Origin: an uncultured Candidatus Saccharibacteria bacterium
Lineage (GTDB): Bacteria > Patescibacteriota > Minisyncoccia > Phycocordibacterales > DATDWN01
Direction: 5' to 3'
NCBI GenBank assembly: GCA_964596875.1
Contig: CAZQVT010000001.1
Location: 175,161-239,160, forward strand
Length of the DNA: 64,000 nucleotides
Position numbers and translations under genes: made by a program. Each line of letters begins with the position of its first letter. Within the stretch, counting starts at the first letter, position 1. Below are positions 5,164 to 40,261 of this stretch, one piece after another. The notes under the pieces are model-generated. The model had not been told where the DNA came from and made no database searches. It was given only the letters and a program-made list of their open reading frames with translations.

Positions 5164-5192
5164 TTGACGTTTATTTAAATAAATGATATACT
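5164..5192 (+). promoter_or_regulatory. sigma70-like promoter TTGACG-17-TATACT driving GC-rich small ORF
   Basis: near-consensus -35/-10 with 17-nt spacer ~55 nt upstream of ORF; GGGAGG RBS at ~5233. Confidence 0.55.
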
Positions 5193-5247
5193 ATATATAG
5201 GTTAATCCGCTCAAGGTTTTGCCTTGGGAGAAGGGAGGTAGATCAAA

Positions 5248-5460
5248 ATGACGCCACTTGCGAGTGAAGTACCGATCGTTCCGAGCATCATTCCTCTGTT
5301 GTTCGGTGAAGAGGGTGACTCCGGAGACGACGGAGACAACGGAAGCTCCGGAGACGACGGAGACGGCGGAACCGGTCAGGGTGATGATCCGGGGGATTCT
5401 TCGGGAGATGACTCCGGACCCGACCATGACGACTACGGTCACGACTCCGATGCCGACTAG
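5248..5460 (+). CDS. small acidic Asp/Gly/Ser-rich protein (70 aa), GC-rich minicassette 1
   Basis: ATG 9 nt downstream of GGGAGG; hydrophobic N-terminus then D/G/S low-complexity tail; internal DNA tandem repeats; GC far above flanks. Confidence 0.4.
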   Translation: MTPLASEVPIVPSIIPLLFGEEGDSGDDGDNGSSGDDGDGGTGQGDDPGDSSGDDSGPDHDDYGHDSDAD

Positions 5461-5486
5461 TTCGGCATGTGACTGACTGACGAGAG

Positions 5487-5513
5487 CGCCACTACCAATC
5501 CGGTAGTGGCGCT
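5487..5513 (+). terminator. hairpin GCGCCACTACC-AATCC-GGTAGTGGCGC after small ORF
   Basis: perfect 11-bp inverted repeat followed by short T stretch. Confidence 0.5.
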
Positions 5514-5539
5514 CGAACTTTTATATTATAATTTTACAC

Positions 5540-6820
5540 ATGAGTATATTTAGTGATTTTAATGTTGTAAGATCAGAAGATTTTCTTGAGAATGGCATTC
5601 GAGTAGTGCTTTTTAAACGTGAAGGTGCTCCAATTACTACCACAGCAATTTTAAAATCTGGTTCAAGACATGATCCCGAATCTATGCCAGGGTTATCACA
5701 TTTTATAGAACATATGATTACAAACGGGTCAAAAGTTTTTCCTACTAAGGATCTTTTGGCAGAACATATAGAATCGGTAGGTGGTGTTTATAGGGCTAGT
5801 ACAGGTCAAGATTCTATGATTGTAGACACTGAAATTTCTGATAGAGCTGATTATTCAAGGGTGGTTGATATCTTTAAGGCAACATTATGTGAACCGTTGA
5901 TGGATATAAAGGTTTTTGAGAATGAAAAAAAAGTGGTTGTGAAAGAAATTAAAAAAAGTGAGTCAAATCCATCTCAAATTGTGATAAAAACTGCAAGACA
6001 GTTATTTTTTTATGGCACTCCGCTTGAACATCCTGTTCTGGGCGATGAAAAAGCAATATTAGATTTTAAGTATGAGGATGTTTTAGATCAACATGTAAAA
6101 CTATTTGATAAATCACGAATTAGCATTATTGTATCTGGTGATATTGAGATGGATATGGTTATTGAAAAATTGAATGAAATTTCGTTTTTAGAAGGAAATA
6201 ATTTTTTGCCAAAGGCTGATAATCTGAATTTTTTAAACGAAAAAAAAATAAAATCAACTTTTTTTGATACAACTCAAACTTATATTTATTTTGGTGTCCA
6301 AGCCCCAGCCTCGTTTACTAAGGATTCTCTACATTTAAATATTCTAGGAAGCATTCTTGCCGGAGGAAGAAATTCAAGGTTAACAAAAAAATTGAGATAT
6401 GAAAAAGGATTGGTGTACAATGTTGGTTTCGGAAGAATTGGTGGAGTAAAACAGGGTTCATGGAATATAATTACTGATACCACCGAGGACAAGGTTCAAG
6501 AAGTTATTGATGAAATTATTAGTGAGATTAGTGATATTAGAAATTTTGGAGTTAAAGATTCAGAATTGGAGTTCGTTAAGAATAAGAGAATAAAATCATT
6601 GAAAAGAAATATGCAGACATCAAATGATTGGGTTGATTTTCATGCAATTGCTGAGGTTTTTTCGGAACAAACTTATAGCATAAATACTTATGTAGAAGAT
6701 ATAAAGAATACTACTGTAGAAGATATAAAAAAAGTAATAGATAAATACTTAGTTGATGACAAATGGAAATTAGCATTGTGTGGTAGAATAAAAGAAGAAT
6801 CAGTTAATATTAATTGGTAG
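5540..6820 (+). CDS. M16-family zinc peptidase (insulinase/pitrilysin-like)
   Basis: inverted zinc motif HFIEH near N-terminus, ~425 aa. Confidence 0.75.
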   Translation: MSIFSDFNVVRSEDFLENGIRVVLFKREGAPITTTAILKSGSRHDPESMPGLSHFIEHMITNGSKVFPTKDLLAEHIESVGGVYRASTGQDSMIVDTEISDRADYSRVVDIFKATLCEPLMDIKVFENEKKVVVKEIKKSESNPSQIVIKTARQLFFYGTPLEHPVLGDEKAILDFKYEDVLDQHVKLFDKSRISIIVSGDIEMDMVIEKLNEISFLEGNNFLPKADNLNFLNEKKIKSTFFDTTQTYIYFGVQAPASFTKDSLHLNILGSILAGGRNSRLTKKLRYEKGLVYNVGFGRIGGVKQGSWNIITDTTEDKVQEVIDEIISEISDIRNFGVKDSELEFVKNKRIKSLKRNMQTSNDWVDFHAIAEVFSEQTYSINTYVEDIKNTTVEDIKKVIDKYLVDDKWKLALCGRIKEESVNINW

Positions 6821-6838
6821 TATATAATGTCTGTATAA

Positions 6839-7531
6839 ATGAAAAAAGAATACACAGCAAGTGTGCATGACAATTTATTTCTTCAATTTTCATATTTTTT
6901 TATAAAAATAACACTAGGGACGCTGGTTAGGCTCATTTGGGTAAAAAAAGTAGAGGGGCTCAAAAATATTCCGAAGGATGGACCCCTAATCATAGCATTC
7001 AACCACCAAAGTTTTTTTGATTTTTTGTGTTTTGTATCAGTATCACCAAGGAAAATACACTTTTTATCTGCTGAAAAATTTTTTTCTCATATTTTATGGG
7101 GGCCATTGGTTAAATTAACAAGTCAAATAAAAGTAGAAAGACAAAGCAGTGATAAAATTGGTCTTCATAAGATCGTTTATGAACATTTATCAAACAATAA
7201 GGTTATAGGGATTTTTCCAGAAGGAACAAGATCTCCTCACGAAAAAGAAATGCTATTGGCTTTTACTGGAGTTGCAGAGTTTGCTTTGCGTGGTGGAGTT
7301 CCAGTGGTACCAGTAGGTATTAGGGGTGCGTATGAAGTAATGGCAAAACATGATAAGACGCCAAAGTTCAAAAAAATAGTTACAATACATGTTGGTGAGC
7401 CAATGCATTTTAACGAGTATCACAAATCTAAACTTGATAAAAAAACATATAGACTTGTGACAAATAAAATAATGATAGAAATAGCCAAACTTTCGGAAAA
7501 AAATTATCCATATTTACATATAGAAGAATAA
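6839..7531 (+). CDS. 1-acyl-sn-glycerol-3-phosphate acyltransferase (PlsC family)
   Basis: NHQSFFD (HX4D) and FPEGTRS motifs. Confidence 0.75.
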   Translation: MKKEYTASVHDNLFLQFSYFFIKITLGTLVRLIWVKKVEGLKNIPKDGPLIIAFNHQSFFDFLCFVSVSPRKIHFLSAEKFFSHILWGPLVKLTSQIKVERQSSDKIGLHKIVYEHLSNNKVIGIFPEGTRSPHEKEMLLAFTGVAEFALRGGVPVVPVGIRGAYEVMAKHDKTPKFKKIVTIHVGEPMHFNEYHKSKLDKKTYRLVTNKIMIEIAKLSEKNYPYLHIEE

Positions 7532-10426: not shown

Positions 10427-10512
10427 CATCGTCTGCGTTGTTGCAGTTCAGTTTTGTTTGTTCACCTTACTACCTGTAAGGCTCACTCACAAAACTTCCT
10501 GCGCCTAGCATC
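10427..10512 (+). repeat. intergenic structured hairpin element, copy A (nested stems GTTTTGT/ACAAAAC and CCTTAC/GTAAGG)
   Basis: ~95% identical to copy B at 28221-28303; shares core with copies C, D, E. Confidence 0.7.
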
Positions 10513-10569
10513 CAATACTATTTATCTCCTTTTAGATTTACAAATGTTGTTTATCTGTAAAAATAAACA

Positions 10570-10597
10570 TTGACAAAATAGTTTTATTGTGTAATTT
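10570..10597 (+). promoter_or_regulatory. sigma70-like promoter TTGACA-16/17-TAATTT for GC-rich ORF
   Basis: consensus -35, AT-rich -10, AGGAGGG RBS at ~10621. Confidence 0.5.
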
Positions 10598-10633
10598 TAA
10601 TGTTGAACTGTTCCGACCCAAGGAGGGTCAAAG

Positions 10634-11305
10634 ATGGCGAAAAGCGTGAAAAAGGCTAAGGCTCGTCGAAACAACTGGAAGCGCGAAGCGACCGAAATCA
10701 TGGAGTTGCTGAAGGGCGCCAAGGCAACCATCGAGGCTCTCGAGCTCAAGCAGACTCAGTCGGATTCGGAGCTCGTCGGGGTGAAGGCCGAACTCGAATC
10801 GGCGAAGGCCGAACTCGACAAGGCCAAGGAAGAACTCGGTGCCGTGAAGGCCAAGTTGGCCGAAGTGGAGGCCGGCCTGTCGGCGCTGGAGACCACCAAC
10901 AAGGACCTGGTCAACAGGAACTTCGCTCTGGAAAGCGGCTTCTACGGCTCGCGTAGCAAGTCGCGTCGGCTCGAGAGTCGAAATCGCGAACTGCGGTTGG
11001 AAATCGACTCGCGCCGTCGGCTCGCCGGGGTTCTGGCTGTGTTTCATCACGCCAGTACCTGCACGGAGGACTGCTTAGAGGAGTTCGCGGCAGCCGGCCG
11101 GGCTGTGGGCGTCGACATCGACAAGATCGACAAGGCCCATGTGTCGGAAGCCTACAAGGCAGCCGGCCGTCGGCTTCACAAGCTGACCTGGGAGAAGGGT
11201 ATCCGCATGACCAAGTCGCACATGAGCCCTCAGTCAGCGACGGACTCACTCGAGGCTACGATCAACGCTGTCGAGCAGATGCTCGGGATGCGCGATCGGG
11301 TCTAG
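10634..11305 (+). CDS. coiled-coil hypothetical protein (223 aa), GC-rich minicassette 2
   Basis: heptad-like E/K/A/L-rich N-terminal half; strong RBS; GC ~58% vs ~35% flanks. Confidence 0.5.
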   Translation: MAKSVKKAKARRNNWKREATEIMELLKGAKATIEALELKQTQSDSELVGVKAELESAKAELDKAKEELGAVKAKLAEVEAGLSALETTNKDLVNRNFALESGFYGSRSKSRRLESRNRELRLEIDSRRRLAGVLAVFHHASTCTEDCLEEFAAAGRAVGVDIDKIDKAHVSEAYKAAGRRLHKLTWEKGIRMTKSHMSPQSATDSLEATINAVEQMLGMRDRV

Positions 11306-11323
11306 CCGAGGGGTGTAGAAGGT

Positions 11324-11358
11324 GGGGTGGCTTCGGTCGCCCCAGCTTCTTTTTTTTA
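11324..11358 (+). terminator. GC-rich hairpin + T9 run
   Basis: GGGGTGGC-TTCG-GTCGCCCC stem (with wobbles) followed by TTTTTTTTT. Confidence 0.6.
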
Positions 11359-11385
11359 TTTGAAATTTTGATATCATTTATAGTT

Positions 11386-13167
11386 ATGGAAAAAACTACT
11401 AAATCATCAAAGAACATACCGATAAGAAAAATTTTTGAGCAATATTGGATTGGTACTGAAAGTAAAAGAACTTTACTGTCTCTTTCAGTAGCCTTTTTCT
11501 TTGTTGCTCAGGTTGTGAGAGTGGTAATTCCTATTTTTTATAAAAAATTCTTTGATTTATTGAGTAGCTCAACAAATCCTGGTTCGGATGTGAATAATTT
11601 AGTTCATATTATATATATAGTATTGGGTCTAAATATTGTAAGTTGGGTTTCATGGAGAGTTGGTGTAAACATGTATAATGTAATGGAATCTCGTGTAATG
11701 GCAAAATTAAAACAAAATGCCTTTAACTACTTAACTAGACATTCATACACATTTTTCGCCAACACATTTGGAGGAAGTTTGGTTCAAAAAATAGGCCGTT
11801 TCAGTAGAGCATTTGAGGCCATACTAGATACTTTGGTGTTTAACTTGATGCCACTACTCATTGCGATTTTCGGCTCGATTTATGTAACCTGGACTATAGT
11901 TCCAGTGGTGTCTCTAATGATAATTGCCTGGGTAATAGTTTTTGTTGTGTTTAGTTTTGTTTTCTCAAATTGGAAACTTAAATACGACGAAATATCTGCC
12001 AAGGCTGACACTGCAACTACGGCATATCTTTCTGACGCTATTACAAACAGCACAGCGATGTCTTTTTTTACTGGTCATGAACACGAGTCGAACGGATTCA
12101 AAGATGTAACACAAGATCAAGCAAATAAGACATTGTTTTCTTGGAGACTTGGGGATGTTGTTGATGCTGTACAAACATTACTCATTTTAATAATAGAGTT
12201 TTTTGTATTTTATTATGCTGTCAGATACTGGAAGTCGGGTCTAGCAACTGTCGGTACTTTTGTTTTGATACAGTCTTATATCATTGGTCTTGCAAACCAA
12301 CTTTGGGGACTGAACAGAATAATCCGAAACTTGTACCAAAGTATTGCTGACTCAAAAGAAATGGTGGAGATTTTGATAACTCCATATGAAATTCAAGACA
12401 AACCAGATGCAAAAGATATTGTTGTGAAAAATGGTGAGATAAAGTTCGAGAATGTTACTTTCAATTTTGGAAAAGGGGAAGATGCCTTGAAGGAAATTAA
12501 CCTTACTATCGGTGCCGGTGAAAAAGTTGCTGTGGTTGGTCATAGTGGTGCGGGTAAAACAACTTTGGTTAGACTTATTATGCGACTTTATAATATTACT
12601 TCGGGACATCTATATATAGACAACCAAGATATTGAAGAAGTAACACAAGACAGTTTGAGAAATAACATAAGTTTTGTTCCTCAAGATCCAATACTATTTC
12701 ACAGAACTCTAATGGAAAATATTAGATATGGAAAGCGTGATGCAACAGATGAGGAAGTTATACAGGCTTCAAAACTAGCACATTGTGATGACTTTATAGA
12801 TAAACTTCCTTTGAAATACGATACATATGTTGGTGAAAGAGGTATAAAACTTTCTGGAGGTGAAAGACAAAGGGTCGCTATTGCCAGAGCTTTACTTAAA
12901 AAAGCCCCGATACTTATTTTTGATGAAGCCACGTCGTCACTCGACTCATACTCAGAGTCACTTATTCAGGATGCGTTAGAAAACCTAATGAAAAATAGTA
13001 CAACAATAGTTATAGCCCACAGACTTTCCACTATAAAGAGAATGGATAGAATTATTTCTATGGATGAAGGCAGGATTGTAGAAATCGGAACACACGAAGA
13101 ACTGGCACACAAAGAAAATGGTTTGTATAAAAAGTTGTGGGACTTACAGGTTGGTGGTTTTGTTTAG
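11386..13167 (+). CDS. ABC exporter, fused permease/ATP-binding (MsbA-like)
   Basis: 6-TM domain then Walker A GHSGAGKT, signature LSGGERQR, Walker B ILIFDEATS; ATG at 11386 preferred over TTG at 11368. Confidence 0.85.
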   Translation: MEKTTKSSKNIPIRKIFEQYWIGTESKRTLLSLSVAFFFVAQVVRVVIPIFYKKFFDLLSSSTNPGSDVNNLVHIIYIVLGLNIVSWVSWRVGVNMYNVMESRVMAKLKQNAFNYLTRHSYTFFANTFGGSLVQKIGRFSRAFEAILDTLVFNLMPLLIAIFGSIYVTWTIVPVVSLMIIAWVIVFVVFSFVFSNWKLKYDEISAKADTATTAYLSDAITNSTAMSFFTGHEHESNGFKDVTQDQANKTLFSWRLGDVVDAVQTLLILIIEFFVFYYAVRYWKSGLATVGTFVLIQSYIIGLANQLWGLNRIIRNLYQSIADSKEMVEILITPYEIQDKPDAKDIVVKNGEIKFENVTFNFGKGEDALKEINLTIGAGEKVAVVGHSGAGKTTLVRLIMRLYNITSGHLYIDNQDIEEVTQDSLRNNISFVPQDPILFHRTLMENIRYGKRDATDEEVIQASKLAHCDDFIDKLPLKYDTYVGERGIKLSGGERQRVAIARALLKKAPILIFDEATSSLDSYSESLIQDALENLMKNSTTIVIAHRLSTIKRMDRIISMDEGRIVEIGTHEELAHKENGLYKKLWDLQVGGFV

Positions 13168-13204
13168 TATTTTCGACTAAACCTAAATGTGATAATATGT
13201 TCCT

Positions 13205-14182
13205 ATGGCTAAAAAAACTTTACTGTCTGGGGTAAAACCTACTGGACGACCACATATTGGAAACTATTTTGGAGCAATGAAACAGTTTGTAGATATGCAG
13301 GAGGAGTTCAACTGTATGTGCTTTATTGCTGACTATCACGCTCTAAACTTTATTCAAGATGGCGCTGAAATGAAACAAAAAATCCTAGATTTAACACTAG
13401 ACTATCTTGCTATTGGTTTGGATCCTAAAAAAACTCTTATTTACAAACAGTCAGATGTGTCAGAACACACAGAACTAACATGGATTTTCGACACAATAAC
13501 AACCATGCCTTACCTTATGCGAGCACACGCTTACAAAGATGCTGAGGCTAAAGACAAAGAAATAAATGTTGGAACTTTTAACTACCCAATGCTAATGGCA
13601 GCAGATATTCTTTTGTATGATGCCGATGTTGTGCCTGTGGGGCAGGACCAAAAACAACACATAGAATACACACGAGATACTGCACAAAAGTTTAATGGTA
13701 CTTTTGCAAGAGAATCAGGCCGCGAAGTTTTCAAACTTCCAGATGCAAAAATATTAGACACTGTTGCGGTAGTGCCAGGAACAGATGGACAAAAAATGTC
13801 TAAAAGTTATGGAAATACTATTCCACTTTTTGCCAGTGACGAAGAAATAGAAAAAGCTGTTATGTCTATTGTTACAGACTCAAGCGCAGTAGGTGAGGGT
13901 GGACGACCAGAAAATGTTTATGCGATTCATAGACTGATAAGAAGTGAAGAAGAGCTTGCTCCTATATATGCAGAAAATATGGGTAAGTACAAAAACTTAA
14001 AAGAAGCACTCATAAAAGATTTAAAAGAATTTATAAAACCACTTCGAGAGAAAAGAGAGCAACTTGCAAGTGATCCGGACTATGTTTTGGATGTTTTGAA
14101 AGAGGGCGGAAAGAGAGCAAAGGCCATTGCAGAAAAGAAAATGGAGGAAGTTAGAGAGGCTATCGGGGTCAAACTATATTAA
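13205..14182 (+). CDS. trpS: tryptophan--tRNA ligase
   Basis: class I HIGH-like PHIGNYFG and KMSKS motifs, ~325 aa. Confidence 0.9.
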   Translation: MAKKTLLSGVKPTGRPHIGNYFGAMKQFVDMQEEFNCMCFIADYHALNFIQDGAEMKQKILDLTLDYLAIGLDPKKTLIYKQSDVSEHTELTWIFDTITTMPYLMRAHAYKDAEAKDKEINVGTFNYPMLMAADILLYDADVVPVGQDQKQHIEYTRDTAQKFNGTFARESGREVFKLPDAKILDTVAVVPGTDGQKMSKSYGNTIPLFASDEEIEKAVMSIVTDSSAVGEGGRPENVYAIHRLIRSEEELAPIYAENMGKYKNLKEALIKDLKEFIKPLREKREQLASDPDYVLDVLKEGGKRAKAIAEKKMEEVREAIGVKLY

Positions 14183-14195
14183 ATTATCTTAACAA

Positions 14196-19090: not shown

Positions 19091-19213
19091 ACTTCCAAAT
19101 TTGGCGATCTACTCGTTTCAAAATTGAAAATGTTCGTCACCTTACTACTTGTAAGGCTTCTCACATTTTCAATTCCTCAACTTTGTGTCTCATCCAAATT
19201 GTGAAAGTTTGTT
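19091..19213 (+). repeat. intergenic structured hairpin element, copy C
   Basis: outer stem ATTGAAAATG/CATTTTCAAT, internal loop TTCGTCA/CTTCTCA, inner stem CCTTAC/GTAAGG, 3' tail CAAATTGTGAAAGTTTG; homologous to copy D. Confidence 0.7.
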
Positions 19214-20713: not shown

Positions 20714-20840
20714 AAAATTTTCAAATTTGGCCAATCTCATCTTCTAAATTTTCAAAATTCTCGTCACCTTAGCACTAACTAAGGCTTCTCACATTTTCAA
20801 AATTTATAAGCGACCTTGTCTCAAATTGTGAAAGTTTGAA
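20714..20840 (+). repeat. intergenic structured hairpin element, copy D
   Basis: inner stem CCTTAG/CTAAGG compensatory relative to copy C; conserved flanks and GTGAAAGTTTG tail. Confidence 0.7.
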
Positions 20841-28220: not shown

Positions 28221-28303
28221 CATCTGCGTTGTTGCAGTTCAGTTTTGTTCGTTCACCTTACTACTTGTAAGGCTCACTCACAAAACATCCTGCGCCTAGC
28301 ATC
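28221..28303 (+). repeat. intergenic structured hairpin element, copy B
   Basis: ~95% identical to copy A over ~85 nt. Confidence 0.7.
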
Positions 28304-29800: not shown

Positions 29801-29805
29801 AAATA

Positions 29806-31308: not shown

Positions 31309-31830
31309 TTACGAATTGAATAATTTATGTATTTCAGGAAAGTATGTTTTGAAAATAATATTGTTTGGTATTATCTTTATTAAATCAATATTTTTCATGT
31401 GTTGTGCTTCCTTGCCGAAGTGGCTCAAAAAATTCTTTTTACAGATGGATCTGAAATTTTTTGAATCGATAGTATTTTTGATTTTTTTACCCACTATTTC
31501 CAGTAAGACACCCTCTGGATTGGGGTTACATAATTGAACTTTGTGGCGAAGACCTTTTATGTATAGTGCTATTTTTTGAGAATCATCAAGATCGTAGTCC
31601 GCCATAAAAAAGAAGTGGATTTTCTCACTTAGTTTTTTTGGTTTAATTTCATACTTTCGTGTTAAGCTAGAAACTTTATTACTGAAAGTCTTTAAGTCAT
31701 TAAACCCCCCCATAATCTCATATTTAAAAGATAAGGGCTTTGAGCAAAAATAAGTTTTGAAAAATCCAAAAAGATTGTATTCTGTGGGTCCTTCACAACA
31801 TATCACATATACATCCTTGGTACTTCTCAT
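31309..31830 (-). CDS. RloB-like (TOPRIM-like) protein, AbiLii-like
   Basis: N-terminal VYVICCEGPTEYNLF matches RloB family CEGxxTExxYF signature; 14 nt downstream of AAA_21 ATPase gene. Confidence 0.6.
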   Translation of the reverse strand: MRSTKDVYVICCEGPTEYNLFGFFKTYFCSKPLSFKYEIMGGFNDLKTFSNKVSSLTRKYEIKPKKLSEKIHFFFMADYDLDDSQKIALYIKGLRHKVQLCNPNPEGVLLEIVGKKIKNTIDSKNFRSICKKNFLSHFGKEAQHMKNIDLIKIIPNNIIFKTYFPEIHKLFNS

Positions 31831-31843
31831 AAATAGTTTATTT

Positions 31844-33052
31844 TTAAATAAATTGCTTGATCATGTGTTCGAATCCAATTGTATCAGGTGTGCCTCCAAG
31901 CAAACCGAGTCTATACTTCTTCTTTAAATTATCCCTATTTTTTACATCCTTCAATTCAGATACCTTGTAAACAATTGAATTATGCTTCTCTTTTTCCACA
32001 ATAAAAGTTTGATCAAGATTCAGGAGCTCTAAGGTTTCGTGATTATGTGTCGCAAAAAAAATTTGAGCATTACCAGTATTTATATCTTTGTTTTTAAATA
32101 AAGATATAATTGATTTCTCTATTTCTGGGTGAAAATACAAATTTGTCTCGTCATAGACAACTAAACCGCCCTTTTTGAAGACAGTAAGTAAATTATATAT
32201 ATGTGCAAAAAGCTCCTTTGTTCCAGCTGATTCTTGCATTAAATCTACGCTTTCATAAAAACCTTTATGTGAAACTTTCACTGATGATGTATTGTTTTCA
32301 ATATCAAGTGATTCAATAGTGTCGTCAAATCGACTCATTATATCTCTAGTAAGTTTTATCATTTCTTCTTTCTTGTTTTTTTCAGCAGTACTTATTCGAA
32401 ATGCATGAGATATTATTCCAAAAATAGTTGGCATAGAATCTAGCTCCGCAGTTTTCGTAAACCAGGACTTTAAATCCCTAAAATAATTAAAATCTTGACC
32501 AGCCCTAAACCCCTCTATTAGATGTGATAGAAGGGTTTGGTACTCAGCAAGCTTTAAAACTGAAAAATATGATTTATGATCTTTGAAGTCTGGGCCAAAA
32601 GTTATTTTTCCATTGAGTCTGTTGAATACAAGCTTAGGTTTTCCAGATTTTAACTTTGTGTTAGTTACGAACAGAGTTTCCGAGCTAATATTTTTTCTAT
32701 CCTTAATTTCTATGTCGTATTTGTAATAGTTTTCATTCAACAAAATATCTATACCAAGCTTGGTTGGTTTATTTTTAAAAGTAGAATGAAAGTTGTTGTA
32801 GGCTAAAATAGTGTCTTTTTGTTCAGGAGTAAGTGTTGTTTTTGTATACATTAAACGTATAAGCGAACTGATTGCTTTTAAAATAGTACTTTTGCCACTA
32901 GCATTAGCACCGTAGAATCCATTTAGAAGAGAAATCTTCTGATTTTTAAAGTTTAAATATCCATCTTCAGTAGTAGAACCTCCCTTTATAAAGTTCAATT
33001 CTAGTGGTTTACCAACAGAATAAAAGTTTGCTAAACGTATTTTTGTTATCAT
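31844..33052 (-). CDS. AAA_21/ABC-type ATPase, RloA/AbiLi-like
   Basis: Walker A GANASGKST, Walker B VVYDE, H-loop ATHNHE; 402 aa; low GC. Confidence 0.7.
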   Translation of the reverse strand: MITKIRLANFYSVGKPLELNFIKGGSTTEDGYLNFKNQKISLLNGFYGANASGKSTILKAISSLIRLMYTKTTLTPEQKDTILAYNNFHSTFKNKPTKLGIDILLNENYYKYDIEIKDRKNISSETLFVTNTKLKSGKPKLVFNRLNGKITFGPDFKDHKSYFSVLKLAEYQTLLSHLIEGFRAGQDFNYFRDLKSWFTKTAELDSMPTIFGIISHAFRISTAEKNKKEEMIKLTRDIMSRFDDTIESLDIENNTSSVKVSHKGFYESVDLMQESAGTKELFAHIYNLLTVFKKGGLVVYDETNLYFHPEIEKSIISLFKNKDINTGNAQIFFATHNHETLELLNLDQTFIVEKEKHNSIVYKVSELKDVKNRDNLKKKYRLGLLGGTPDTIGFEHMIKQFI

Positions 33053-33557
33053 ATTAATATTTATGCAATAAAATGTACAATTTAAAGTATAGTACCTTAA
33101 ATTAAATACGTCAAACCTTAGGGCAGGGGACTTCCCTACAAATAATAGGAAATTTTAGAACCTCAAATAATGGGGTTCGGATGGTAAAAGGGGTGCTATC
33201 TAGGTACCTAGAAAAGAGAACTCTAAGCCAATTATTTGGTGCATTTTTATATATAAATATTTAATGAAAACCATTTAATGATTAAACTGAACAAACGAAT
33301 CTTTTGAGCAAACCCCCTTAGGGACTATGCTAAAAAGATATATTGTGCGACACGGCTATATACTCCCCCCCTCTATATAACTAACTAAAAACAATAAAAC
33401 ATTTAATTACTAAAATAATTGAATATGTAATTATTTTGCATCAAAAAAATCCCGCCCCCACCCCACCCTGGTTCAGCCGGTTTACACAAAAGTAAAAATA
33501 CATATACTTATTACGAAACACAATATCCGTTCTTTTCGGTTTCTGGAGGTTCGCGCC

Positions 33558-34007
33558 ATGAATGGCATTGAAGGAAACGTTCAGCTGGTGTTCGTGCTGA
33601 TGGGCGTGATCTCTGGTCTTTTGGGCGGAATTGCCCACGCCAAGAAACGGCACGGTTTGGGGTGCTACAAGAACGGCACTCTGAGTCTGACACCACAGTG
33701 GTACCGCTGTGGCAGTTGCTGGACTGCCGTAGTCTTCTACGCGGTTTTCATGGGCTGCATTTTTGCGCTCATGCACGACATTTACTACGCTGGCACTCAG
33801 ACAGTTGGAGGTGCCATCGGACAAGTTGTCGTCACGTTTTTTGGTGTCATATTGTCTGCCGTGTTGACGTTAGCGGTGGCACTGCTGGGCTTGCTTGCCA
33901 TCGGCTACTCGGAACATCGCTGGCCTCAGTGTCGTAAGTATAAGTGGATCTCCTACAGCTTCGCAGTCATCGTTCGAACGTATCTCTATCACCTCACTAG
34001 ATACTAG
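33558..34007 (+). CDS. hypothetical integral membrane protein (149 aa, ~4 TM, Cys-containing), GC-rich minicassette 4
   Basis: ATG 7 nt after GGAGG; GC-rich. Confidence 0.45.
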   Translation: MNGIEGNVQLVFVLMGVISGLLGGIAHAKKRHGLGCYKNGTLSLTPQWYRCGSCWTAVVFYAVFMGCIFALMHDIYYAGTQTVGGAIGQVVVTFFGVILSAVLTLAVALLGLLAIGYSEHRWPQCRKYKWISYSFAVIVRTYLYHLTRY

Positions 34008-34028: not shown

Positions 34029-34077
34029 ATCGCAAGTCGCAAGATCCGGAGGATCGCAAGGCGACTTGCGATTTTCC
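34029..34077 (+). terminator. 12-bp perfect hairpin ATCGCAAGTCGC...GCGACTTGCGAT + TTT
   Basis: immediately after 33558-34007 ORF; two further small hairpins follow. Confidence 0.55.
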
Positions 34078-34232: not shown

Positions 34233-34234
34233 GT

Positions 34235-34705: not shown

Positions 34706-34904
34706 ACTAACTGCTGTGAAATTTAAAATATGTTTATTTTAAGTTGTAATTCAGACGTAATTGAATAGGTTGCCCTTTTCAAAAGAAAAACTCAGGAAAT
34801 CTGAGTTAGGTATATATTAGCATATCTTGGACTTCTTGTCAATATAAAACAATAGATTTGGGGTATTGGCAAGGCTTAGAAAACTCATATTTATAGCCAT
34901 ATTA

Positions 34905-34954
34905 TTGTGAAAAAACACCACACAAGAAAACCACAAATTTTGCAACTTGTGGTT
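34905..34954 (-). terminator. dnaJ intrinsic terminator (AACCACAA...TTGTGGTT + T run on - strand)
   Basis: 8-bp stem then TTTTCTTGTGTGGTGTTTTTT on - strand ~30 nt past dnaJ stop. Confidence 0.55.
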
Positions 34955-34982
34955 CCTGTTGGTTAAAAGTTTTTAACTTTTT

Positions 34983-36053
34983 CTATAGACCCTCGTTTCT
35001 AAGACCCTCTATAGTCTTTTTTGCGTCTTTTGAGAGTTTGTGAGGCATAACTATGCTTGTTATGACCAATATATCACCCCTACTTCCCCTATCTAGGGCG
35101 ACACCCTTGCCTTTGATACGAAGTATTTCTCCATGTTTTAGACCCTCTGGTACTTTTAGGGTGATATCGCCTTCTAGAGTTTTGATAACAGTTTCGCCTC
35201 CCAGGATGGCATCGGTAAGTTTGACTGGAAGATCCATGACAAGGTTTGCACCTTCTTTTCTAAAGAAAGCATGTTTTTTAACGTAAACCTTTATATACAA
35301 GTCTCCTGACTGGCCAGAGGCTATGGCTTCCCCTGCCCCAGATAGGCGGATCATTTCTCCACTTTCTATACCTGCGGGAATATGGACTTTTATCTCTGTT
35401 TCGCGTTTTAGTAGGCCCTCTCCGCGACAAGTTTCACATTTATTTTTAGGGACTTTGCCAGCACCGTGACAGACGTCACATGTTGTTTGAGTTTCAAACT
35501 GACCAAAGAATGTTCTTTTGACTTCGCGAATAGAGCCCTTGCCGTTACATTTTGAACAAGTCGCTTGTTCGCTACCTTTTTGTCCACCAGAACCATTGCA
35601 AGTCTCACATTTTGAAACCTTGTTTAGTAGAACTGTTTTGTCTACTCCAAAGACAGAGTCTTCGAAAGATATTTCAGTGTCGATAGATATGTCACGACCT
35701 CTTTTTGATTGTCTTCTTCCACCACCGCCAAATACATCACCAAAGATGTCACCAAAGTCGAACTCGAAGCCACCGTTCGCACCCTGCGTAAACTGTGAGA
35801 AGTCAAAACCTTCAAATCCGCCACCGAAACCACCTCCTCCCATGTTTGGACCGGCAGAGCCAAACTGGTCGTACTGCGCACGTTTCTGGTCATCAGAAAG
35901 AATCGAGTAAGCCTCGTTTATTTCTTTGAACTTTGCATCATCGCCAGTTTTTTTGTCCGGGTGATATTTATGGGCTAGGGTTCGAAAAGCCTTTTTGATC
36001 TCGTCTTTTGAGGCCTTTTTGTCGACGCCCAAAGTTTGGTAGTAATCTTTCAT
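34983..36053 (-). CDS. dnaJ: molecular chaperone DnaJ
   Basis: J domain with HPD, G/F region, four CxxCxGxG zinc-finger repeats; start at MKDYYQTLGV preferred over upstream extension. Confidence 0.9.
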   Translation of the reverse strand: MKDYYQTLGVDKKASKDEIKKAFRTLAHKYHPDKKTGDDAKFKEINEAYSILSDDQKRAQYDQFGSAGPNMGGGGFGGGFEGFDFSQFTQGANGGFEFDFGDIFGDVFGGGGRRQSKRGRDISIDTEISFEDSVFGVDKTVLLNKVSKCETCNGSGGQKGSEQATCSKCNGKGSIREVKRTFFGQFETQTTCDVCHGAGKVPKNKCETCRGEGLLKRETEIKVHIPAGIESGEMIRLSGAGEAIASGQSGDLYIKVYVKKHAFFRKEGANLVMDLPVKLTDAILGGETVIKTLEGDITLKVPEGLKHGEILRIKGKGVALDRGSRGDILVITSIVMPHKLSKDAKKTIEGLRNEGL

Positions 36054-36160
36054 GATTGTTATTATAAGGTTTTTTTGGGTAATGTATAGGTTTGACCACA
36101 CCCTATCTATAATGTAGTCTGTATTGTGGAATACGGGTCATCTTGGCCCACGGAGAAACC

Positions 36161-36496
36161 ATGAGCGAGTCTCTTTTGGGTGAGGTTAAGTTCCCAGTGC
36201 AGTTTGCCTGCGATATCTGCGGGCATCACTTTTCGTGCGAGCGAGAGGGCCTGAAGAGCCACGAAGTCAACAGGAGGCACTTTATCAGACTGATTCGTAC
36301 CACGGTCGTTGCGGCCTGTCCCGCGTGCGATGCAAACGTGGGCAGATCATTCGATGAGCTGCTTCCGGATGCTCCTAACACTCTCGGTGAACTGCGAGCG
36401 CAGTACAAAGTCGCCCGCGGCAACGGTGCTGGGCCTCTCGAGGCCATCGGCTTCGCCAAGTTCAAGATTCGTCTCGTCAAGCGGAGGATCGCATGA
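36161..36496 (+). CDS. hypothetical Cys4 zinc-ribbon protein 1, GC-rich minicassette 5
   Basis: CxxC...CxxC, Arg/Lys-rich tail, GGAG RBS; ATG 36161 preferred over TTG 36143. Confidence 0.4.
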   Translation: MSESLLGEVKFPVQFACDICGHHFSCEREGLKSHEVNRRHFIRLIRTTVVAACPACDANVGRSFDELLPDAPNTLGELRAQYKVARGNGAGPLEAIGFAKFKIRLVKRRIA

Positions 36497-36783
36497 ATCG
36501 TCAGCGCCATCGGTTTGTATGCAGCAATTGTAGTACCTCATTCGAACCGGAGTGTCCGGTCGTCCCAACGGAGAACGTTCGGTCTGAAGTTCCGAAGGCG
36601 AAGCTCCTGGAGGCGAGTTGTCCGCTTTGCGGTTACACGGTCAAGATGATCGTGAACGGAGTGTTGGACATCGAGAGGCTTCATAGCGATCCGGTGAAAC
36701 GTCAGTACTTCCATCACAGGCGTCGCGGAATGGATGCTCCTCTAGCCAGGCGCTTGGCGAACCGGCTCGCCACAAGAAACTAG
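36493..36783 (+). CDS. hypothetical Cys4 zinc-ribbon protein 2 (translationally coupled)
   Basis: ATGA start/stop overlap with previous ORF, GGAGG RBS, CxxC...CxxC, basic C-terminus. Confidence 0.4.
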   Translation: MNRQRHRFVCSNCSTSFEPECPVVPTENVRSEVPKAKLLEASCPLCGYTVKMIVNGVLDIERLHSDPVKRQYFHHRRRGMDAPLARRLANRLATRN

Positions 36784-36806
36784 TTCCCGCCCCTCTGGGG
36801 CATACC

Positions 36807-36841
36807 AGCCCGTGGCCGAGTTCGCTCGTCGCGGGCTTTGT
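36807..36841 (+). terminator. hairpin AGCCCG...CGGGCT + TTT after zinc-ribbon pair
   Basis: 6-bp GC stem with weak U tract; also GCCCC-TCT-GGGGC hairpin at 36789-36801. Confidence 0.4.
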
Positions 36842-36853
36842 CACATCTCTTTG

Positions 36854-38755
36854 CTATTTATTGTCTTCTGGTTTCTTTTCCTCAAAGTCCGCGTCTCGAA
36901 CATTATCCCCTTCTTGTTTTGGAGCCTCAGTTCCAGCACTAGCGTTTGCTTTGTTTATCGCCTCCCCTATTTTAGATGTTTCGTTTGAAAGATCTACAGT
37001 AGCTTTTTTAATCGCTTCTATCTCTGAAGCAGTATTTGCAAGTACATCTTTCAATGCTTTAGATTTTTCTTCTACACTTGCTTTTACATCACTAGGCACT
37101 TTGTCGCCTGCATCTTTTAATGCTTTTTCTGCTGTGTAGATAAGTTGCTCACCAATGTTTTTTGCTTCAACAAGATCTTTTTTCTTTAAGTCGTCTTGTG
37201 CGTGCATCTCTGCGTCCTTTTGCATTTTTTCTATGTCCTCTTTAGAAAGTCCAGAACGAGCCTCTATGCGAATAGACTGCTCTTTGTTTGTCGCTTTATC
37301 TTTTGCTTTTACTGATAGGATTCCGTTTGCATCTACATCAAATGAAACTTCTACCTGAGGCATACCTCTTGGTGCAGGTGGAATACCGTCTAGAATAAAT
37401 CTACCTAGGGACTTGTTGTCACTTGCCATCGCTCTTTCACCTTGAACAATGTGAATTTCTACAGAAGTTTGATTGTCGGCTGCCGTAGAGAAAACTTGTG
37501 AACGACTTGCAGGGATAGTCGTGTTTCTCTCAACTAGTTTTGTTGCAACACCTCCCATAGTTTCGATACCAAGAGAAAGTGGAATAACATCTAGAAGTAG
37601 AACGTCTTTAACATCACCAGCAAGTATTCCACCTTGGATAGCAGCACCTAGGGCTACAACTTCGTCTGGGTTTATAGACTTGTTTGGATCTTTCTGGAAG
37701 AACTCTTTAACTTTTTCTGCAATTTTTGGCATTCTTGTCTGTCCTCCTACTAGGATAACTTCATTTACTTGTGAAGTAGAAAAACCTGAAGCCTCCATAG
37801 CTCTTTTTGTGATAGCCATTGCTCGGTCAATGAATTCTGCTGTAAGCTCCTCTAGTTTTGCTCGAGTTATTTTTATAAGCAAGTGTCGTGGACCAGAAGC
37901 ATCAGATGTTATGAACGGAATATTTACTTCAGACTCCATTGCCGTAGAAAGTTCTATTTTTGCTTTCTCTGCAGCCTCATCAAGGCGCTGTAGTGCTAGA
38001 GTGTCGCCTCTTAGGTCTATACCAGATTCCTTTTTAAATTCATCTGCAAGGAAGTTAATAATTTTTTGGTCAATATCTTTACCTCCCAAGTGTGAGTCTC
38101 CGTCTGTAGATTTTACCTCTATAACAGAGTCCCCTACTTCTAGAACTGACACGTCGAATGTTCCGCCTCCAAAGTCGAACACTACGATTTTCTCTTCTTT
38201 TTTACCCTTGTCAAAACCGTATGCAAGTGCTGCGGCTGTTGGCTCGTTTATGATTCGCAATACTTCAAGACCTGCAATAGCGCCAGCGTCTTTTGTTGCC
38301 TGTCTTTGTGAGTCGTTAAAGTATGCAGGCACTGTGATGATAGCCTGTGTTACTTTCTCACCTATTTTTGCTTCTACATCTGCTTTGATTTTTGAAAGCA
38401 CCATTGCAGATATTTCTTCTGGAGAATAGTTTTTATCTCCCATCTTTACACTTACCCCGCCCGTAGAGCCTTTTGAAACAGCAAAAGGAACTATTGCTTT
38501 GTCTTTTTGAACAGCTTCATCGTCAAATGTGTGACCAATGAATCTTTTGATCCCAAAAACTGTGTTTGTTGGGTTTGTTACTGCCTGTCTTTTTGCTAAG
38601 AGGCCCACAAGTCTTTCACCAGTTTTAGATGTTGCGATGATAGAAGGTGTTGTTCTTGCACCCTCTGAGTTTTCTAATATTTTTGGTTGCCCTGCTTCCA
38701 TGATTGCGACAGCAGAGTTTGTTGTACCTAAGTCGATACCTATTATTTTTGCCAT
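36854..38755 (-). CDS. dnaK: molecular chaperone DnaK (Hsp70)
   Basis: [16 protein letters not shown], full 633-aa Hsp70. Confidence 0.95.
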
Positions 38756-38774
38756 AAATTTTGTTTGTTAGTCA

Positions 38775-38900
38775 CAGAGCTTCCATTTTTGAAAAATTTC
38801 TTTGTTGGAACTTCGGAAACTCTCGTCACCTTATACTAGATAAGGCTCCTCGCTTTTCCTTGTTCCGCCTCGAACTTTTCTCAAAAACTGAAAGCGTGTG
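38775..38900 (+). repeat. intergenic structured hairpin element, copy E (in dnaK upstream region, + orientation)
   Basis: CTCGTCA-CCTTAT-ACTAG-ATAAGG-CTCCTCGC with outer GGAAA/TTTCC; compensatory stem change vs copies C and D. Confidence 0.65.
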
Positions 38901-38931
38901 GTTGATTAAAACTAGTAAAAATAAAACAAAA

Positions 38932-39237
38932 TTAATTTGAGTTTGGGCCTCTTGGTTTAGATCCTAGTGCGTAAACAGTAGCTAGTTTATATTTTTTAGA
39001 TACAAATAAAGTTTTAACAAAGTTGAAGATAGTTGTTTCAGTCTTTGAAACAATAGAAAGTAATAGGTCTCTACCCTTTAGAAGTAGTTGTTCAGTTAAG
39101 TATACAAAATCCAGTAGTCTAGCTTTTACTCTGCTACCTTCAAGGTAAACGAAAAATCTTGCACGAATAAGTTTGCCTTCCTTGTCTCGAAGTACTTTTT
39201 CTACGATATTAACTTGTGATTTTGTGACTTGTGTCAT
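38932..39237 (-). CDS. hypothetical protein between grpE and dnaK (101 aa)
   Basis: ORF only; ATG 39237 just after grpE stop; ORF-track TTG start at 39246. Confidence 0.3.
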   Translation of the reverse strand: MTQVTKSQVNIVEKVLRDKEGKLIRARFFVYLEGSRVKARLLDFVYLTEQLLLKGRDLLLSIVSKTETTIFNFVKTLFVSKKYKLATVYALGSKPRGPNSN

Positions 39238-39238
39238 T

Positions 39239-39838
39239 TTATTCAAAGTGTGCGACTTTTACTTTGGGCGCTCTTATCTCTTTTCCATTTAGTTCATATC
39301 CTACTTGTATTACGTCCAATATTTTACCCTCGTCATCCTTGCTGTCAACTTTTACTGTTTCTATGGCCTCATCTCTCTTACTATCATACATTTGTCCAAC
39401 AGGGTTTATTACATTTAAACCATGACCTGCCAAGGCGTTTAGAAGTTGAGTTCTTATATATTCGATACCAACTCTCCAGTTTTTATCTACTTTTTCCCAA
39501 GTCTCTTTGTTTCGCATTGCGTTGTCAAAAGAGTCTAGTGCTGGAATTATCTCAGAAATAAGGTCGGCTTTTGCAAACTTTAAAAACTCAGACTTTTCAT
39601 CCGCATCTCGTTTTCTAGAGTTAAGAAACTCTGCTTTATCGCGTTGCCAAGCATCCAAAATTTCTGCATTTTTCTTTTGCAACTCCTTTATTTGGGCCTT
39701 TAGTTTTTCTGTGCGGTCTTTTATCTCAGGAGCAAGGTTTTCCGGCATATCTTCAAAAGTGACATCGTCACCTGGGTCTGTGTCTACCTCGTCTTTTGTT
39801 ACTCTATTTAACTCTTCATCTCTCTGGTCATCATTCAT
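39239..39838 (-). CDS. grpE: nucleotide exchange factor GrpE
   Basis: coiled-coil N-terminus and C-terminal beta-domain typical of GrpE; start at MNDDQRDEEL. Confidence 0.85.
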   Translation of the reverse strand: MNDDQRDEELNRVTKDEVDTDPGDDVTFEDMPENLAPEIKDRTEKLKAQIKELQKKNAEILDAWQRDKAEFLNSRKRDADEKSEFLKFAKADLISEIIPALDSFDNAMRNKETWEKVDKNWRVGIEYIRTQLLNALAGHGLNVINPVGQMYDSKRDEAIETVKVDSKDDEGKILDVIQVGYELNGKEIRAPKVKVAHFE

Positions 39839-39891
39839 AGGACTGTATTTTAACACAAAAAATATATGGGTCAAATGTAGCACTTTGATTT

Positions 39892-39913
39892 AGTCGCCAT
39901 AGTACGAGGCGGT
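39892..39913 (+). repeat. direct repeat DR1 (AGTCGCCATAGTACGAGGCGGT, extends to ~35 nt)
   Basis: identical 22-mer at 40240-40261; both followed by (T)TTTTCGT. Confidence 0.7.
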
Positions 39914-39956
39914 CATTTTCGTATAAATATGTTATGTTAATTTCGGAGGTGCACAG

Positions 39957-40220
39957 ATGGCTTTTTGTCGACTTACTCGTGTAGTAAAGAAAGATGGAAC
40001 CACCAGGGATGTACTCCAGGTGTTTTACGATGATCAAAAGATCGAACCGGTAATTCTTGAAAAAGGAGAAGGAACTCAATATGTTATAGAAGGGACCACA
40101 ACCATCTTTGGGAATTCAGAAGAAATGCTTCCCGAAGATCTCAAGGCTGAGGTGCTGGCGATTCGTGATTCGATTGAGCGTGGTGAATTCGTAGACATTG
40201 ATCACAAGCTCGACAAGTGA
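39957..40220 (+). CDS. hypothetical small protein (87 aa), minicassette 6
   Basis: GGAGG RBS 7 nt upstream; 5'UTR homologous to cassette 3; flanked by direct repeats. Confidence 0.4.
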   Translation: MAFCRLTRVVKKDGTTRDVLQVFYDDQKIEPVILEKGEGTQYVIEGTTTIFGNSEEMLPEDLKAEVLAIRDSIERGEFVDIDHKLDK

Positions 40221-40239
40221 CCGTCACGTACGGCGATTA

Positions 40240-40261
40240 AGTCGCCATAGTACGAGGCGGT
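40240..40261 (+). repeat. direct repeat DR2 (terminator-like CGCC...GGCG + T6)
   Basis: copy of DR1 348 nt downstream. Confidence 0.7.

Follow-up and report, generated by a model that had tools for sequence, protein, structure and literature searches.

The stretch of DNA examined here (64,000 nucleotides of contig CAZQVT010000001.1, positions 175,161 to 239,160, referred to below as the window) carries five, perhaps six, small predicted transcription units, named C1 to C6, in intergenic positions among the housekeeping genes of a chromosome with a GC content of about 36.5% (sliding-window median 0.365). Genes were assigned by Pfam searches, translation and synteny with annotated relatives, and the housekeeping content comprises ABC transporters, TrpRS, AspRS, ScpAB, a DD-carboxypeptidase, AsnB, MraY-FtsW-MurG, GluRS, grpE-dnaK-dnaJ, ribosomal proteins with RpoA, AlaRS and LeuRS; no tRNA genes were found in the window. 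All relatives of the TrpRS and DnaK proteins belong to the Paceibacteria/Parcubacteria group of the Patescibacteria and, judged from these sequences, the host is a low-GC member of the Paceibacteria (candidate phyla radiation). The nearest TrpRS in genome and metagenome scans was 76% identical, and closer relatives were reached only through look-ups of DnaK, the nearest homologues of which are 91-94% identical to that of the window, and of the C2 protein family. The relatives are about ten contigs from other samples (designated by L numbers), available in pieces of about 20 kb against the 64 kb of the window.

The first unit, C1 (5164..5524, plus strand; GC 0.60), begins with the promoter TTGACG-17-TATACT at 5164-5192, passes through a 5' untranslated region (UTR) with a small hairpin and GGGAGG into an open reading frame (ORF; 5248-5460, plus strand) for an acidic, Asp/Gly-rich protein of 70 amino acids (aa) containing a 27-bp tandem repeat (5319-5371), and ends in a terminator hairpin at 5484-5514 followed by a T-run; its GC content at third codon positions (GC3) is 0.59. 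In C2 (10570..11358, plus strand; GC 0.61, GC3 0.78), TTGACA at 10570-10575 and TAATTT at 10592-10597 are separated by a 16-nt spacer, a hairpin GACCC-aagga-GGGTC at 10615-10629 on the same strand encloses the ribosome-binding site, and the ORF (10634-11305, plus strand) encodes 223 aa forming a long coiled coil and then a small helical domain, with a terminator at 11323-11344 and a T-run. The third unit, C3 (20850..21782, minus strand; GC3 0.72-0.78), is tricistronic: from the promoter TTGACT-16-TATAAT (21782-21755) it runs on the minus strand through C3a (21735-21310, 141 aa, a predicted N-terminal membrane helix), C3b (21299-21195, 34 aa, a predicted membrane helix) and C3c (21186-20917, 89 aa, a predicted multi-pass membrane protein) to a long terminator hairpin (20898-20860) with a TTTTCGTTT tail. 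Downstream in the window, C4 (33481..34078, plus strand; GC3 0.64) combines the promoter TTTACA-16-TATACT (33481-33508) and a CTGGAGG ribosome-binding site with an ORF (33558-34007, plus strand) for a predicted four-pass membrane protein of 149 aa and a hairpin at 34030-34071 with a T-run. The membrane assignments of C3a, C3b, C3c and C4 were judged from hydrophobic stretches.

The bicistronic C5 (36092..36845, plus strand; GC3 0.64-0.66) has the promoter TTGACC-17-TAGTCT at 36092-36120, two genes on the plus strand for proteins with CxxC zinc-ribbon motifs, C5a (36161-36496, 111 aa) and C5b (36493-36783, 96 aa), which overlap in an ATGA stop/start, and a terminator hairpin at 36807-36837 with TTTGTCA. 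It sits between dnaJ (34983-36101) and dnaK (36854-38755), on the strand opposite to theirs; dnaK and dnaJ are uncoupled in the window, compared with a spacing of 50 bp in L172, and any read-through transcript from dnaK to dnaJ would be antisense to C5. The last unit, C6 (39887..40269, plus strand), is of borderline composition and consists of an ORF at 39957-40220 (87 aa) preceded by the 3' half of a terminator (27 nt, 39887-39913, with its tail reaching 39922) and followed by a full long hairpin at 40222-40261 with TTTTTTCGT. A GGAGG-type site lies 5-9 nt upstream of the start codon of every cassette ORF, and every unit ends in a GC-rich hairpin and a T-run. In a promoter scan, the two best sigma70-like sites in 19 kb were the promoters of C3, in first place, and of C1, and that of C4 scored 10 of 12; the promoters of C2 and C5 were missed by the scan and are kept in relatives as TTGACA/C-16/17-TA(A/G)T(A/C/T)T. 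Sequence reading and scans therefore bear out, for the first five units, the common build of promoter, GGAGG-type site, one to three small ORFs and hairpin terminator that had been proposed in an earlier reading of this DNA (the original prediction), but C6 lacks a clear -35 element.

Five GC islands were resolved, with peaks of 0.51 (5.2-5.6 kb), 0.63 (10.8-11.2 kb), 0.55 (21.0-21.6 kb), 0.54 (33.6-34.0 kb) and 0.58 (36.4-36.8 kb). Of the six GC-rich minicassettes originally proposed, the five at 5.2, 10.6, 20.9-21.8, 33.5-34.1 and 36.1-36.8 kb are therefore confirmed, with GC3 values of 0.59-0.78 in their ORFs against 0.287 +/- 0.041 in 31 host genes (maximum 0.38), but C6, with a GC content of 0.43 and a GC3 of 0.39, borders on the host range. 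Cassettes and host have opposite preferences among synonymous codons, as seen in the shares of AAG among Lys codons (0.91 vs 0.22), of CTC plus CTG among Leu codons (0.67 vs 0.09) and of ATC among Ile codons (0.72 vs 0.16). Both C and G are raised at the third positions of cassette codons, and, with the exception of C1 and C6, every cassette ORF has a GC3 above its GC1 and GC2 in the chosen frame. In units 1-3, the outer 60 nt on each side have a GC content of only 0.10-0.28, so that composition changes abruptly at the borders of the transcription unit, the GC-rich block extending from about the predicted transcription start to the terminator; units 4-6 lack such sharp edges, their flanks having a GC content of 0.32-0.48. 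Low-GC relatives yielded 22 islands in 866 kb, compared with the five in the 64-kb window, and more distant low-GC Paceibacteria (L006 and L078) also carry similar GC-rich promoter-ORF-terminator units.

The proteins encoded by these units are largely orphans. Nine cassette proteins gave no meaningful family match in Pfam, PHROG or PADLOC; C5a had a weak PHROG match (phrog_15404, E=3.7e-4), and the anti-phage defence models of PADLOC returned coiled-coil noise for C2 (E of at least 0.001) and nothing for the other cassette proteins. An exhaustive phmmer search of 1.84 billion representatives recovered 13 matches to C2 at E<=0.001, 11 of which entered a family alignment that holds invariant residues. 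Eight members were looked up, and all of them come from contigs of low-GC Paceibacteria; wherever a flank is visible, they precede TrpRS and/or directly follow a methyltransferase or ABC gene. The contigs sharing this slot are L162, L163/L164, L169, L170, L171 and L176-L178, and in L168, a 902-bp contig with a C2 member, only part of the neighbouring GNAT gene can be seen. The AlphaFold2 model of C2 (predicted local distance difference test score 84) consists of a single helix of 125 residues and a small helical domain, and had no fold match in the PDB. A word-indexed search of 5.8 billion clusters, made for C5a alone, gave no candidate, and no homologue of the C4 protein was found. Likewise, no match was obtained with tblastn of the cassette proteins other than C2 against phages and plasmids, with the C2 family profile or the C6-type terminator pattern against viral contigs, or with the DUF397 protein of L163 (see below) against plasmids.

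Homologues in relatives were found for C3c, C5a, C5b and a cassette encoding a GNAT protein that shares the C2 slot, the last being 73-91% identical at the amino acid level between genomes. Identity at codon positions 1, 2 and 3 was 0.67, 0.69 and 0.58 in C2 and 0.55, 0.79 and 0.39 in C3c; because third positions vary most or second positions are spared, and given the homologues and invariant residues, the cassette ORFs appear to be real coding genes under constraint. The membrane, zinc-ribbon, coiled-coil or acidic nature of the products, their rate of change and the neighbouring defence-like genes, which are the only basis for a functional assignment, suggest that the proteins probably act in envelope, host or phage interactions under diversifying selection.

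Six slots were compared in up to ten relatives. Between the methyltransferase and TrpRS genes, the window has C2 and then an ABC gene, L162 the C2 homologue only, L163/L164 a GC-rich 193-aa ORF with a GC-rich GNAT gene and the C2 homologue, L170 and L176-L178 the C2 homologue with GNAT, and L002 GNAT only, while the C2 homologue of L169 shows no GC enrichment (GC3 0.33). Promoter, ribosome-binding-site hairpin and terminator of the C2 slot are kept across relatives in which the proteins are 30-50% identical, and the pairing of the hairpin is preserved by compensatory changes (GACCC/GGGTC, GGCCC/GGGCC, GGTCC/GGACC). Between dnaK and dnaJ, the two-gene C5 unit occurs in the window, L174 and L175, in each case on the opposite strand and with conserved promoter and terminator; compared with L174 and L175, the window proteins are 29-30% (C5a) and 31-43% (C5b) identical, beside a DnaK that is 91-94% identical. 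In L172 and L173 the same junction is a 50-bp gap with no unit. The -35 element of C5, TTGAC, belongs to the flank that is still present at this empty site, and the insert is bounded by TTGAC...TTGTC, a border repeat of only 5 bp. Since L175, of the genomes compared the one least similar to the window by DnaK (91%), carries C5, the empty site suggests loss rather than a site that was never filled, an argument drawn from identities and not from a tree. An N-gap with a duplicated 55-nt segment inside the C5-type cassette of L174 (12415-12515) is a scaffolding artefact that fuses two ORFs in naive translation.

Different contents behind conserved ends were seen in other slots. Between rpsI and grpE, unrelated ORFs of the window (C6), L174, L175 and L172 are all closed by one family of long-hairpin terminators (50-57 nt), L172 having two tandem cassettes that both end in it; as input to RNAalifold these terminators fell into two subfamilies poorly alignable with each other. 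We read the 27-nt repeat that precedes C6 as what is left of a second, tandem cassette, because it corresponds to the 3' half of the terminator of this slot and L172 holds such a tandem pair. Between the DD-carboxypeptidase and AsnB genes, L002 has a C3c homologue (47% identical at the amino acid level) and a terminator 92% identical over 51 nt, together with a different upstream ORF and no C3a. Between two acyltransferase genes, the window has C1 and an M16 peptidase, L176 is empty, L177 has a methyltransferase and L163 a low-GC gene of 141 aa with a GC-rich DUF397 gene. Between AspRS and ScpA, L002 carries a tandem pair of paralogous cassettes, nearly identical in their terminators and alike in the build of their 5' UTRs; L176 has only the first of the two, L177 only the second and the window neither. 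The content of the C4 slot differs in L172 and L175, with conserved blocks on both sides, and very small hydrophobic ORFs of 40-43 aa were found in these two relatives.

The original prediction had asked for junction polymorphism in relatives, which is indeed present at dnaK|dnaJ, rpsI|grpE, methyltransferase|TrpRS and AspRS|ScpA. It had also named the presence of all of these ORFs, of high GC content, at the same loci in sister genomes, with no junction polymorphism and no shared motifs beyond the window, as the outcome that would count against a mobile system; cassettes 2, 3c and 5 do occur at the same loci and at high GC in sisters, yet the junctions are polymorphic.

One replacement could be traced. 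L176 and L177 are about 98% identical, but only 83% over ABC3-AspRS and again over ScpA, the genes that flank the differing cassette, and because this tract spans the cassette together with its flanking genes we take it, as a single example, for import by homologous recombination from a diverged relative. The two contigs are strongly mosaic (4358-6522 and 10524-15121), with several multi-kb tracts about 83% identical or unalignable; members of this group thus seem to exchange DNA often with diverged relatives by homologous recombination. Duplication and deletion between repeated modules may also have occurred, because tandem copies with near-identical terminators are found in L002 and L172, single copies in L176 and L177, and half a terminator in the window.

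Sequence features shared among the units of different slots were scarcer than first thought. The UTR sequence said to be common to cassettes 1, 3 and 6 amounts merely to the ribosome-binding site and a few bases, and blastn-short comparisons between the ends of different cassettes revealed no similarity across slots, only within orthologous slots or tandem duplicates. TTTTCGT, proposed as a shared terminator tail, was counted 19 times in the window, where 18.0 +/- 4.4 occurrences would be expected, and was rejected as a common signature for being at chance frequency. The mobilising enzyme had been stated not to be in the window. Our Pfam search of most window ORFs above 100 aa gave no integrase, transposase or HUH match; the aminoacyl-tRNA synthetase, ABC transporter, MraY/FtsW/MurG and ribosomal ORFs, identified by translation or synteny, were outside that search. 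Altogether, the pattern first noticed is real and non-random, and its interpretation as a cassette-capture or mobile minigene system is partly supported: the units are modular and their junctions polymorphic, but they share no sequence across slots, no mobility enzyme was found among the window ORFs searched, and they are old residents.

Taken together, these results make it probable, in our view, that the units are moron-like accessory transcription units held in fixed intergenic slots, acting as gene-transfer hotspots, of a low-GC Paceibacteria chromosome. Each unit would be self-sufficient and insulated, with its own sigma70-type promoter, a structured 5' UTR with a strong ribosome-binding site, one to three small ORFs and a strong terminator, and could therefore be expressed without disturbing the neighbouring housekeeping operons. 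The units would be old in the clade, with conserved promoter and terminator modules around ORFs that diverge very rapidly or give way to others. Content would change in three ways, namely by recombination of DNA from diverged relatives with the homologous housekeeping genes on the flanks, for which L176 and L177 provide the one demonstrated case, by tandem duplication, and by deletion between repeated terminator or UTR modules, as suggested by L002, L176, L177, L172 and the half terminator of the window; a dedicated recombinase would not be needed.

The composition of the units has to be explained in addition. Identity at four-fold sites was 0.47-0.62 in host genes between these genomes, from which, taking saturation to lie near 0.30, we estimate a divergence of about 0.9 substitutions per site; the C2 family, at 0.05-0.41, was saturated, and GC3 was nevertheless 0.65-0.78 in every lineage except L169. 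Under a two-rate amelioration model with an equilibrium GC3 of 0.28 and about 0.45 substitutions per site per lineage, some 60% of the GC3 excess would be gone and a starting value of 0.80 would have fallen to about 0.47. The GNAT cassette holds its GC3 at 0.65-0.75 while diverging in step with its flanks, and its polarised singletons are near balance (60 strong-to-weak, GC-to-AT, vs 45 weak-to-strong). Because synonymous sites are saturated and GC3 is still about 0.7, the high GC content seems to be near a steady state and not a decaying scar of transfer. With low confidence, we lean towards maintenance by selection on transcript or codon composition over re-import, given the conservation of slot, promoter, terminator and family alike and the lack of a visible external pool; alternatively, GC-richer Patescibacteria that have not been sampled, or their mobile elements, would have supplied the ORFs anew time after time. 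Biased gene conversion was also considered as the cause and rejected as unlikely, the recombined flanking genes having stayed AT-rich.

Several observations weigh against this interpretation. No force that maintains the GC content has been identified, and a symbiont with a small genome would have difficulty in sustaining selection at hundreds of synonymous sites. The relatedness of the GNAT genes (0.91 between L002 and L170, about 0.73 between either and L163) is discordant with that of the neighbouring methyltransferase (0.84-0.89), which fits repeated import. A GC-rich Parcubacteria genome, L030 (GC 0.54), has a GNAT homologue that is compositionally native, 48% identical and near TrpRS, and the GC-rich DUF397 gene is present in one relative, L163. 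Moreover, the view extends over 64 kb of one genome and pieces of about 20 kb of its relatives, so a recombinase elsewhere is possible, and function was deduced from protein type only, none of the nine cassette proteins falling in a recognised family.

Recent and independent transfers from GC-rich donors, either a bacterial host or GC-richer Patescibacteria, with a composition that is now fading, would account for the resemblance of the units to a genome of about 55-60% GC in composition and codon usage, and for C6 and the C2 homologue of L169 being near host composition, as expected of older arrivals. The family of the DUF397 gene in the slot of L163 is mostly actinobacterial. The native GNAT homologue of the 54% GC Parcubacteria genome also points in this direction, as does the report that most gene transfer of Patescibacteria takes place between Patescibacteria (PMC12455944). 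We nonetheless hold recent transfer to be unlikely: the same families, slots, promoters and terminators persist across about 0.9 synonymous substitutions per site with GC3 still at about 0.7 and their own sites saturated, no donor-like C2 homologue turned up among the 1.84 billion representatives, and neither the 5.8 billion clusters searched for C5a nor the phages and plasmids yielded a source. In addition, the GC-rich blocks of units 1-3 end sharply at the transcription start and terminator, and the promoters are AT-rich DNA of host type.

A more speculative proposal, to which we give only a small chance, is that the loci are fixed expression slots with a resident promoter and a conserved terminator, in which selection keeps hypervariable small genes in a second, GC-rich codon or transcript dialect. 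One possible reason would be that GC-rich genes stay stable and translatable when AT-rich mRNA or the tRNAs for A/U-ending codons are attacked by a phage or toxin. It is kept in consideration because GC3 remains at about 0.7 through saturation, three of the six units have block edges that coincide with the transcription unit, and no donor pool can be seen; if true, the units would constitute a gene class coded by composition and not a relic of transfer.

Still less credible is a dedicated cassette-capture system, in which the terminator-like hairpins would be recombination sites of the attC or IS200/IS605 subterminal type, and an integrase or Y1 HUH transposase encoded elsewhere would insert an ORF with its hairpin behind resident promoters. 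Several details would suit it, namely the conserved 50-57 nt hairpin behind unrelated ORFs and tandem cassettes between rpsI and grpE, the half hairpin preceding C6, the C5 -35 element TTGAC in the flank retained at the empty site with TTGAC...TTGTC bounding the insert, and the C3 slot, where window and L002 differ in the promoter-proximal ORFs and have the distal ORF and terminator in common. However, the hairpin families are slot-specific with no similarity across slots, by-eye inspection found no RYYYAAC/GTTRRRY attC cores in the unit hairpins (for example ACCGTCACGTACGGCGATTAAGTCGCCATAGTACGAGGCGG followed by TTTTTTCGT), and each unit has its own promoter. Besides the lack of a mobility enzyme among the window ORFs searched, the orthologous ORFs are as old as the clade, with saturated synonymous sites, the one swap that could be traced lies within a multi-kb tract of homologous recombination, and the presence of C5 in L175 makes the empty dnaK|dnaJ site look like a loss.

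GC-rich islands in AT-rich genomes are usually RNA genes, and chance frames arise easily in GC-rich DNA, so the ORFs could be chance frames within structured non-coding RNA genes, the more so as each island contains several overlapping ORFs on both strands. We find this very improbable, since the whole window gave no Rfam match at the gathering threshold and no tRNA, every proposed ORF has GGAGG at the correct spacing, GC3 exceeds GC1 and GC2 in all but the C1 and C6 ORFs, and the C2, C3c, C5 and GNAT families show conserved amino acid motifs and position-specific conservation. Assembly chimeras or contaminating GC-rich reads in an AT-rich metagenome-assembled genome can practically be dismissed: the source is a metagenome assembly and L174 has its N-gap and duplication inside a cassette, but each island is enclosed by a host-type promoter and by a host gene no more than a few tens of bases away, and the units are not assembly artefacts because an independent Logan assembly reproduces C2 with the same context and at least six other samples or assemblies carry homologous units in the same slots.

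The window contains further elements near the units. Two related families of palindromic intergenic repeats of about 90-125 nt lie just after stop codons, family A at 10427..10516 and 28223-28303 (the second copy 96% identical by blastn) and family B, also delimited by blastn, at 19097-19209 and 20716-20840. They fold far better than shuffled sequences (z -4.2 to -6.1), the minus strand being the more stable in both families, and gave no match in Rfam. Copies exist in relatives (L006 14190-14290, L002 5243-5315, L172 18048-18128, and L175 1674-1778 and 20780-20882), some of them orthologously placed; that at L175 1674-1778, after AlaRS, has no counterpart in the window. The original prediction had remarked that this hairpin element adjoins cassettes 2 and 3, which is correct, but as a link between cassettes it fails on the cassette-free copies at 19.1 and 28.2 kb. 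A role as cassette attachment site was likewise rejected, the element being missing from orthologous cassette-2 slots and present at cassette-free sites; the repeats look like a repetitive extragenic palindrome (REP) or miniature inverted-repeat transposable element (MITE), or a small RNA family, separate from the cassettes.

Next to C4, a non-coding stretch at 33100-33400 is conserved, with 28-47-nt blocks 87-100% identical in L172 and 75% identity over 226 nt in L175; its 19-22-nt core AAAAAGATATATTGTGCGACA matches at 95-100% in four distant Paceibacteria loci (L047, L037, L008 and L084). No Rfam family was found for it at threshold, and at E<=1 the region 33.0-34.3 kb gave chance-level matches only; it may be an undescribed small RNA or regulatory region. 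Just upstream of the C4 promoter, a CCCGCCCCCACCCCACCC run at 33447-33470 (minus strand GGGTGGGGTGGGGGCGGG and then T7) has four G-tracts and may be a G-quadruplex-type motif or the 3' half of a lost minus-strand terminator. Also beside C4, a minus-strand pair at 31309-33052 of host-like low GC, missing at the same position in L172 and L175, encodes a 402-aa AAA_21 ATPase (Pfam E=2e-21) and a 173-aa partner with no assigned family, and resembles two-gene anti-phage systems. Gene orientation converges at about 31-34 kb, with plus-strand genes to 31077 and minus-strand genes from 31309, and the cumulative GC skew has its maximum at about 31.5 kb, which would fit a replication terminus; the variable region made up of the defence-like pair, the conserved non-coding block and C4 is located right there. 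Downstream of C6, the region 40290-40600 has two bidirectional terminator hairpins (40390-40407 and 40550-40567) and, at 40461-40517, a pair of similar motifs, GGGAAACCCACAGTTTTCCCAATC and GGGAAAACACCCAGTTTTCCCGACC, conserved in L172, and the segment 40292-40433 is 90% identical in L175.

Among known systems, the units resemble phage morons most closely in design and core-gene-flanked transfer hotspots in dynamics. Morons are autonomous promoter-ORF-terminator units of divergent composition inserted between genes that are adjacent in relatives (Hendrix and colleagues; 'The moron comes of age', PMC3594210). The units share with them one to a few small accessory ORFs between their own promoter and terminator, predicted from sequence with ends conserved in orthologous units, as well as the divergent composition and a junction that is empty in relatives (L172/L173 at dnaK|dnaJ, L176 at the acyltransferase slot). 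In contrast to morons, they occupy positions between the housekeeping genes of a cellular chromosome (dnaK/dnaJ, rpsI/grpE, trpS and others), with no phage genes nearby and no phage or viral homologues, and they persist in the same slots across a clade with conserved regulatory ends.

Chromosomal hotspots concentrate variable content at a few fixed positions, many of them with no mobile-element genes, and turn over through homologous recombination in the flanks; such hotspots and flexible islets flanked by core genes were reportedly described by Oliveira, Touchon, Cury and Rocha in 2017. Variable accessory content at fixed positions between conserved core genes is what we found here, together with one example of turnover through the flanks (L176/L177). 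The islets of the window differ in being tiny (0.35-0.95 kb), in forming complete promoter-to-terminator units, and in being all shifted to high GC within a 36% GC genome and maintained so across a divergence of about 0.9 synonymous substitutions per site. Acquired genes, by contrast, usually have a higher AT content than their host and ameliorate.

Like the cassettes of integrons and of clusters of attC sites lacking integron-integrases (CALINs), the units have small, mostly orphan ORFs of atypical composition, an imperfect palindrome of about 50-60 nt conserved within a locus behind unrelated ORFs, and tandem arrangement in L172 and L002. Unlike them, they have no attC cores by eye, hairpins followed by T-runs and belonging to different families by slot, their own promoters, and no integrase (intI) among the window ORFs searched; they are dispersed singly over 35 kb and form no promoterless array. 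Passengers of IS200/IS605-type elements or MITEs are no better a match, given that no transposase was found among the window ORFs searched and no end sequence is common to the six units. Finally, type I toxin-antitoxin and small-membrane-protein loci likewise combine tiny hydrophobic intergenic ORFs, as in C3b (34 aa) and the 40-43-aa ORFs of L172 and L175, with a strong promoter and terminator and a structured 5' UTR that partly hides the ribosome-binding site; here, however, no antisense RNA partner was identified, the proteins of most units are larger or non-membrane, and no family match was obtained. What appears new is that hypervariable mini-operons keep a uniformly GC-rich composition throughout a clade of the candidate phyla radiation; the literature we searched contained no description of this.

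Bacteria of the candidate phyla radiation have tiny genomes, and their strain-variable genes are almost uncharacterised. Our results indicate that, in one clade of Paceibacteria, this variable fraction is probably organised as miniature insulated units at fixed sites between essential genes, exchanged by homologous recombination. The slots would thus mark where the fastest-evolving small proteins are encoded, which makes these proteins candidates for host, envelope or phage interaction. Besides, units with a GC3 of about 0.7 in a genome with a GC3 of about 0.29, in spite of saturation, contradict the usual expectation of amelioration and offer a natural test case for what may hold local base composition away from the genomic equilibrium.

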